The position numbers were made by a program, and so were the translations under genes. A stretch of 64,000 bases of DNA from Escherichia coli (GTDB taxonomy: Bacteria > Pseudomonadota > Gammaproteobacteria > Enterobacterales > Enterobacteriaceae). The stretch lies in the NCBI RefSeq assembly GCF_011045215.1, contig NZ_CP049201.1, one strand, 5' to 3'. The notes beneath the pieces are model-generated. The model had not been told where the DNA came from. It did no database searches and was given only the letters and a program-made list of their open reading frames with translations. Of the stretch, positions 56,247-56,865 are shown piece after piece. Each line of letters opens with the position of its first letter. Within the stretch, counting starts at the first letter, position 1.

Positions 56247-56865
56247 AACTCGCCCTTTGTCATAGACGTGCTGCGTATTGTTCAGATAATGAGAATCCAT
56301 TTGTATCATGAAGCACGGTTGTTTTGCGGTAGGTTAAGATCAAAATTGCGCTGATTAATCCTGGTTATCGGGAGACGCTTGGTGATAAAAAGCGAATTAT
56401 CTCTCGCCGTAAACAAACTATCGCATGAATATTATCACTATAATGAATTTATTGTTTAGCCTTTACGGGTCAGGATAATAGATAGCTGGGCGCGTTTTTT
56501 AGTGTTAACAAGTTAAAATCATCAGATTTTATTGAATAAATATTGATTGTGTGATTCCCGCATTCTGCTGGAAGAGATATCATTTAATTATAAATTAAAT
56601 GAATGAGATTTCTGTTTTTCATTAAGTATTTCTAACAACTTAATGTAGATATTTTAAATGTCTCCAGGCTATTTCACCAGGTTATCATTTGATGCTAACC
56701 TTCTGACACATGCAGTGGAGTTGTTGTGCAGCAGGAGTATGCTGATATGAAAGTGAATGCTAAGGATAATTTATTCGCTTAATCTATTAATTTGCTGGAA
56801 ACATTTAAGGAATGAATATCCTGAATAAACCATCATAATTTTTAGACAGTGGATGTGGAGGAAAT

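Follow-up and report, generated by a model that had tools for sequence, protein, structure and literature searches.

Genes and limits of the divergent locus

The window, by which we mean the whole stretch of 64,000 nucleotides analyzed, contains a divergent locus in which dnaT, yjjB and yjjP lie on the minus strand, while the plus strand carries yjjQ, bglJ (which overlaps it) and then fhuF, yjjZ and tRNA-Leu genes. The yjjP coding sequence (55476–56246, minus strand, RefSeq start) specifies a 256-residue ThrE-family exporter (Pfam ThrE, E = 4e-69) and is the first gene of a yjjP–yjjB unit, which we take to be a putative succinate exporter. On the opposite side, yjjQ (56866–57591, plus strand) encodes a 241-residue LuxR/GerE-type regulator as judged by RefSeq and Pfam, and its 3' end is overlapped by bglJ (57549–58226, plus strand), an intact open reading frame (ORF) of 225 codons; the yjjQ–bglJ unit comprises two LuxR-type regulators. 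The identities of the divergent yjjP and yjjQ–bglJ genes had been assigned from the sequence alone in the original prediction, and RefSeq annotation of near-identical E. coli records shows them to be correct. In O157:H7 strain TR01, the counterpart of 57549–58226 (locus L001, 4350–5027) is annotated as a bglJ pseudogene with an internal stop.

The left edge of the intergenic region had initially been placed at 56310, a position taken from the longest mechanical ORF (277 residues, ATG at 56309), and this needed revision. The conserved and annotated yjjP start is that of the 256-residue product beginning MQTEQ, at 56246. The yjjP coding sequence and the adjoining CCCTTT, the complement of a Shine-Dalgarno sequence, are kept across genera, whereas the 21-codon N-terminal extension shows no conservation between genera. 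Because yjjP starts at 56246 and not at 56309, the true divergent intergenic regulatory region spans 56247–56865, and is 619 bp long with a GC content of 34.2%. A stretch of 701 bases around this spacer matches 5,423 of 5,426 complete E. coli genomes, and we therefore regard the locus as an E. coli locus. The spacer is single-copy in 5,420 of the 5,426 genomes (median, one place per genome) and is free of tandem repeats, and such inverted repeats as it has are weak; on these grounds, an origin as a REP, MITE or IS remnant was rejected. The closest of the 5,426 genomes is 99.0% identical around the spacer and 99.2% identical over 16 kb (40000–56200), such that the window represents an E. coli-level lineage outside this genome set; it carries hpa genes that are missing from K-12.

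The claim that the region is very AT-rich is borne out: 56310–56865 has a GC content of 33.6% compared with 50.8% for the whole window, and equally low values are found in 1.5% of all 556-bp segments of the stretch. The GC content reaches its minimum of 27% at around 56500–56700, with the lowest 200-bp values (27–31%) at 56400–56700, and the TpA frequency in the spacer is about twice the window average (0.090 vs. 0.046). At 34% GC against 51% for the window, the spacer has the AT-rich composition of DNA that is bound by H-NS. The homopolymeric A/T runs that had also been singled out are not a distinct feature, as nine runs of at least four compare with 8.9 ± 2.7 in composition-matched shuffles; the longest A/T run in the spacer is T6. 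With at most two mismatches allowed, the H-NS motif TCGATAAATT has four matches in the 619 bp, two of them in the central part at 56446 and 56526, where about one would be expected from the density in the window. This roughly four-fold enrichment was rejected as a separate signal, since AT-richness alone accounts for the excess.

Elsewhere in the window, the patch of lowest GC content (~8300–11400, down to 29.5%) holds espX6, which encodes a pentapeptide-repeat T3SS effector, a DUF3343 gene, an SdiA-regulated-domain gene and yjiL, and is covered to at least 80% in 585 of the 5,426 genomes. A third low-GC patch lies at ~22350–23100 and has a minimum of 35% in 556-bp segments.

Three-part constraint and conservation of the spacer

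Nucleotide diversity (pi) was calculated from eight E. coli strains representing phylogroups A, B1, B2, D and E, using four-fold degenerate sites in yjjP (pi 0.054) and yjjB (pi 0.060) as a neutral yardstick. The spacer divides into three parts: (i) a constrained yjjP-proximal module of 119 bp (56247–56365, minus strand; pi 0.004), with the same sequence in the window as in K-12 and O157; (ii) a central AT-rich spacer of ~255 bp (56366–56620; 32% GC) with a pi of 0.060; and (iii) a constrained yjjQ-proximal module of 245 bp (56621–56865, plus strand; pi 0.005), with 0–1 differences from K-12 and O157. Among the eight strains, 38 of the 44 variable sites in the spacer fall in the centre. Divergence from an Escherichia sp. 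outgroup agrees with this pattern, amounting to 0.137 in the centre and 0.042–0.047 in the flanks. Since pi in the centre equals that of four-fold sites, the centre evolves at an approximately neutral rate. Hypermutation and diversifying selection in the centre were rejected for the same reason, neutral change and recombination being sufficient.

The window is ~96.7% identical to K-12 over 701 aligned bases, and the K-12 region is the same locus with the same flanking genes and a spacer of near-equal length (618 bp, against 619 bp in the window). The differences from K-12 are distributed as 0 of 119 bases on the yjjP side, 23 of 255 in the centre and 1 of 245 on the yjjQ side, and all differences from K-12 and O157:H7 align between ~56369 and 56631. 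Identity to the centre of the window is bimodal among 5,420 E. coli genomes, with a gap that separates an O157/B2-like haplotype class (~38% of the genomes, 94.9–97.6% identical to the window) from a K-12/B1-like class (~60%, 89–92% identical). Unlike K-12, the window has a centre of the O157/B2-like class with additional private changes, and its best match among these genomes is 97.6%. In view of these private changes, silencing strength in the source strain could differ from that in K-12. Between K-12 and O157, 20 of the 255 central bases differ, compared with 1 of 1,775 in dnaT–yjjB–yjjP and 0 of 683 in yjjQ, and this concentration in the centre shows that recombination has occurred within the spacer.

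The yjjP–(yjjQ–bglJ) region has been listed among variable intergenic host markers in E. coli (PMC11267920). Like the host-marker regions csgDEFG–csgBAC and flhDC–uspC it is a variable divergent intergenic region, with its variation located in the centre; in the present comparisons its diversity corresponds to neutral expectation plus recombination and shows no sign of host-driven selection.

The yjjQ gene itself is near-invariant in E. coli. Strains of phylogroups A, B1, B2, D and E share one protein, WP_000936635.1, and diversity at four-fold sites (0.012) is lower than in yjjP and yjjB (0.054–0.060), while divergence from the Escherichia sp. outgroup (0.148) is as fast as that of the neighbouring genes. 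The combination of low diversity within E. coli and ordinary outgroup divergence suggests that a single yjjQ allele has spread through the species.

A cross-genus scan with one genome per species placed relatives of yjjQ in 80 loci. In 54 of these, representing 54 Enterobacteriaceae species, yjjP and yjjQ adjoin each other in divergent orientation, and the spacer between them measures 387–709 bp with 32–44% GC, compared with 42–61% GC for the genes that flank it. The centre is unalignable between genera, with cross-genus conservation near 0, and short blocks persist elsewhere in the spacer. These observations bear on two alternative accounts of the low GC content. By the first, yjjQ–bglJ and its promoter would form a recently acquired foreign island that is silenced as xenogeneic DNA, an idea that gains some appeal from the GC content of yjjQ and bglJ (45%, against 51% for the window) and from the fact that acquired AT-rich DNA is typically silenced by H-NS. 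The occurrence of the AT-rich divergent arrangement in 54 species, however, indicates that it is old and not a recent import. Moreover, the yjjP/yjjQ–bglJ synteny extends over Escherichia, Citrobacter, Salmonella diarizonae, Enterobacter, Klebsiella, Kluyvera, Raoultella and others, and YjjQ identity declines steadily, from 98% to 55%, across the syntenic genera, which again argues for an old arrangement; we therefore consider a recent acquisition very unlikely. By the second, mutation bias would have made an unconstrained spacer AT-rich, and H-NS would bind it incidentally, with no regulatory role. The synonymous-site rate of the centre and its lack of alignment between genera are what such drift would produce, but the flanking modules are about ten-fold less diverse than synonymous sites and a long AT-rich spacer has been kept in all 54 species. 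Drift is also hard to reconcile with the published genetics of H-NS repression and LeuO activation (PMC5025477), and with IS insertions in the centre that are beneficial and change expression (PMC5094792). We assign this account, too, a very small probability, and favor a regulatory region with a compositionally defined centre.

In some 20 other species, including Klebsiella, Raoultella, Kluyvera and Citrobacter amalonaticus, ~2.6 kb separate yjjP from yjjQ in place of a single spacer (loci L008–L011, L025, L026, L029, L034, L040, L043, L060, L065, L066, L070, L074–L076, L081 and L082). In Klebsiella pneumoniae (L070, 1653–3735), the sole locus of this kind examined, an FAD-dependent monooxygenase (PF01494) is encoded there together with an AraC-type regulator. 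In three Pseudocitrobacter loci, the distance is ~1.8 kb.

Candidate promoters, regulator sites and hidden genes

We infer the promoter hexamers and start sites of the two units from motif matches and conservation; a genome-wide start-site data set holds no entry for yjjP or yjjQ. On the yjjP side, a predicted extended −10 element, TGATACAAA on the yjjP strand (56300–56308, minus strand; cross-genus consensus TTtTA.CA), overlaps the superseded ATG at 56309 and would set the yjjP start site near 56293. A block conserved across genera, ctGG.t.AGATCAA..TTtgtG (56326–56352), lies ~45–50 bp upstream of this putative start site. The yjjP-proximal module would thus accommodate the yjjP 5' UTR, the core promoter and an upstream site. 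Within the block, AGATCAA (56337–56343) is the most strongly conserved cross-genus element and includes the one Dam site, GATC, that occurs in the 619-bp spacer. FNR, CRP and ArcA sites were considered for it by eye, and none fitted.

On the yjjQ side, the module probably contains one or more yjjQ promoters, regulator sites and the 5' UTR. Its outer boundary coincides with a conserved cross-genus block, atT.Agt.tt.CTAA ... T.TTtTaA (56620–56660, plus strand), which is a candidate upstream yjjQ promoter or regulator site. The promoter scan predicts a sigma-70 promoter, CTGATA-17-GATAAT (56742–56770, plus strand), which was also named as the best yjjQ promoter match in a genomic SELEX study (PMC3946193), and from which yjjQ transcription would start near 56777 with a 5' UTR of ~89 nt. 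The sequence AAGGATAA (56761–56768), which contains the predicted −10 element, is kept in Escherichia, Citrobacter and Salmonella. The yjjQ Shine-Dalgarno sequence GGAGG (56857–56861, plus strand) is separated by 4 nt from the yjjQ ATG at 56866, with the cross-genus consensus GGAt..GGAGg...TATG.

MarA ChIP-seq in ETEC H10407 gave a strong peak between yjjP and yjjQ with the motif gcatcaaatgataac (PMC5684230). This motif was located exactly in the yjjQ-side module, at 56681–56695 on the minus strand, in the form of a marbox, GCATCAAATGATAAC, that is an exact copy of the ETEC site. The predicted site thus has the marbox sequence of a MarA/SoxS/Rob target; it is partly conserved across genera, where part of 56676–56697 persists as a block.

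It is conceivable, though in our view unlikely, that the two centre haplotypes set different H-NS silencing strengths for both units, with selection keeping them in different hosts, or that the AGATCAA block and the block at 56620–56660 are sites for regulators new to this locus. If the conserved blocks do act as such sites, the ‘cryptic’ yjjQ–bglJ operon would have a natural inducing signal.

The original prediction saw no convincing small RNA or small ORF in the region, and Rfam searches, folding, codon-position patterns and conservation bear this out. An independent small RNA gene or structured leader RNA concealed in the AT-rich stretch would have ample room in so long a spacer, and two features could be taken to suggest one: a terminator-like hairpin on the minus strand (56408–56391), downstream of two weak promoter-like matches, and a 14-nt inverted repeat, I2, that is 93% complementary (56654–56667/56795–56808). 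However, an Rfam scan with E up to 10 returned chance-level matches only (best E 4.6 and 6.7, far below gathering scores). Neither the candidate yjjQ leader (56655–56880; z = −0.69) nor the minus-strand candidate that ends at the hairpin (z = +0.83) folds more stably than shuffled sequences. The hairpin, a single terminator-like match against 0.6 expected, is situated in the non-conserved centre, and the inverted repeat is not accompanied by compensatory changes in other Escherichia; by a rough estimate, a comparable repeat occurs by chance in about one in four AT-rich stretches of this length. A hidden RNA is thus extremely unlikely.

A small protein or leader peptide upstream of yjjQ that controls its translation is equally improbable. 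Of the two candidates on the plus strand, a 30-codon ORF (56658–56750) is open in E. coli and two other Escherichia species, but lacks a Shine-Dalgarno sequence, has substitutions distributed 7:9:9 over the codon positions and is frameshifted in Escherichia sp. E1V33. The other, an 11-codon ORF (56747–56782), has an AGGAG 9 nt upstream, but in three other Escherichia lineages (L004–L006) a 1-nt deletion reduces it to two codons and the AGGAG is lost. The 30-codon ORF is missing outside Escherichia, Citrobacter, Salmonella and Enterobacter all lacking a counterpart. Both ORFs were rejected as genes.

Control by H-NS and LeuO

Stratmann, Madhusudan and Schnetz (2008, J Bacteriol 190:926) reportedly characterised the regulatory region between yjjP and yjjQ–bglJ in K-12, and their abstract is said to describe a region of 555 bp with H-NS at its centre and one LeuO site overlapping the yjjP promoter. 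The three-part map fits this description. The roles of H-NS as repressor and of LeuO as activator of yjjQ–bglJ, as given in the original prediction, are supported by the E. coli K-12 literature in combination with the near-identity of the window to the K-12 region in the promoter-proximal parts. Two papers from the Schnetz laboratory state both effects, citing Stratmann et al. 2008 (PMC5025477; PMC3950696), and genomic SELEX has shown that the yjjP–yjjQ spacer binds RNA polymerase sigma-70 holoenzyme and H-NS (PMC3946193). During evolution in the mouse gut, IS1, IS2 and IS5 insertions upstream of yjjP, at distances of 111, 185 and 256 bp, were repeatedly selected, and yjjP expression, measured in an IS1-insertion clone, was raised ~2-fold (PMC5094792; PMC4674774). 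In the window, the published IS1, IS2 and IS5 positions correspond to 56357, 56431 and 56502, that is, to the left boundary and the centre.

Combining the anatomy, the constraint, the conservation and the absence of RNA and ORF signals, all from the present analysis, with the effects of H-NS, LeuO, MarA and IS elements described in the K-12 and ETEC literature, we propose the following mechanism. The 619-bp spacer would serve as a shared control region of two divergent units, yjjP–yjjB leftward and yjjQ–bglJ rightward, each with its own sequence-constrained promoter-proximal module. H-NS would nucleate on the AT-rich DNA, chiefly in the centre, where composition would matter and the exact sequence would not, and would spread over both promoter modules, leaving yjjP–yjjB and yjjQ–bglJ nearly silent. 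LeuO, by binding several sites, would restructure the H-NS complex such that yjjQ–bglJ is de-repressed, and MarA-family proteins might remodel the complex as well, on the yjjQ side. IS insertions at the left boundary or in the centre would break the H-NS complex and thereby raise yjjP expression. The central segment (56366–56620) is, judging from its composition and neutral evolution, the likely zone of H-NS nucleation and spreading. We infer that H-NS acts mainly through this primary element, where central H-NS binding was reportedly described in 2008. Taken as a whole, a shared control region with a three-part anatomy in which LeuO relieves silencing by H-NS is very probably the correct explanation of the locus.

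Similar principles are known from the bgl operon and leuO promoter regions, which, like the yjjP–yjjQ region, have AT-rich upstream silencing DNA, and de-repression by LeuO is common to these regions and yjjQ–bglJ (PMC5025477; PMC9678765; PMC5493358). In the bgl and leuO regions, either LeuO or BglJ-RcsB relieves silencing by H-NS; IS insertion into the upstream AT-rich DNA also activates bgl, as in the yjjP–yjjQ region. The yjjP–yjjQ region differs from both in that one spacer silences two divergent units, and in that no downstream silencer within a coding region is known for the locus.

The H-NS/LeuO control region between yjjP and yjjQ is real, was correctly interpreted in the original prediction and is already known; because the description of the locus and its control by H-NS and LeuO dates from 2008 and has been drawn on ever since, it carries little weight as a discovery. 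The map of two constrained promoter modules around a sequence-neutral AT-rich centre is a modest addition that places the published IS insertions and the MarA site within an arrangement that is old in Enterobacteriaceae. For the natural switch-on of yjjQ–bglJ, it points to ~360 bp that are worth mutagenising.

Finally, IS1 accompanied by a deletion is found at this locus in the natural isolates 203740 (L083, 4048–4862) and GPT21-003_1 (L089, 2482–3435), at the counterparts of ~56290–57400 in the window. In both strains, the deletion covers the 5' part of yjjQ along with the greater part of the spacer, and bglJ is intact behind the IS element, an allele that resembles the laboratory bglJ-constitutive allele.
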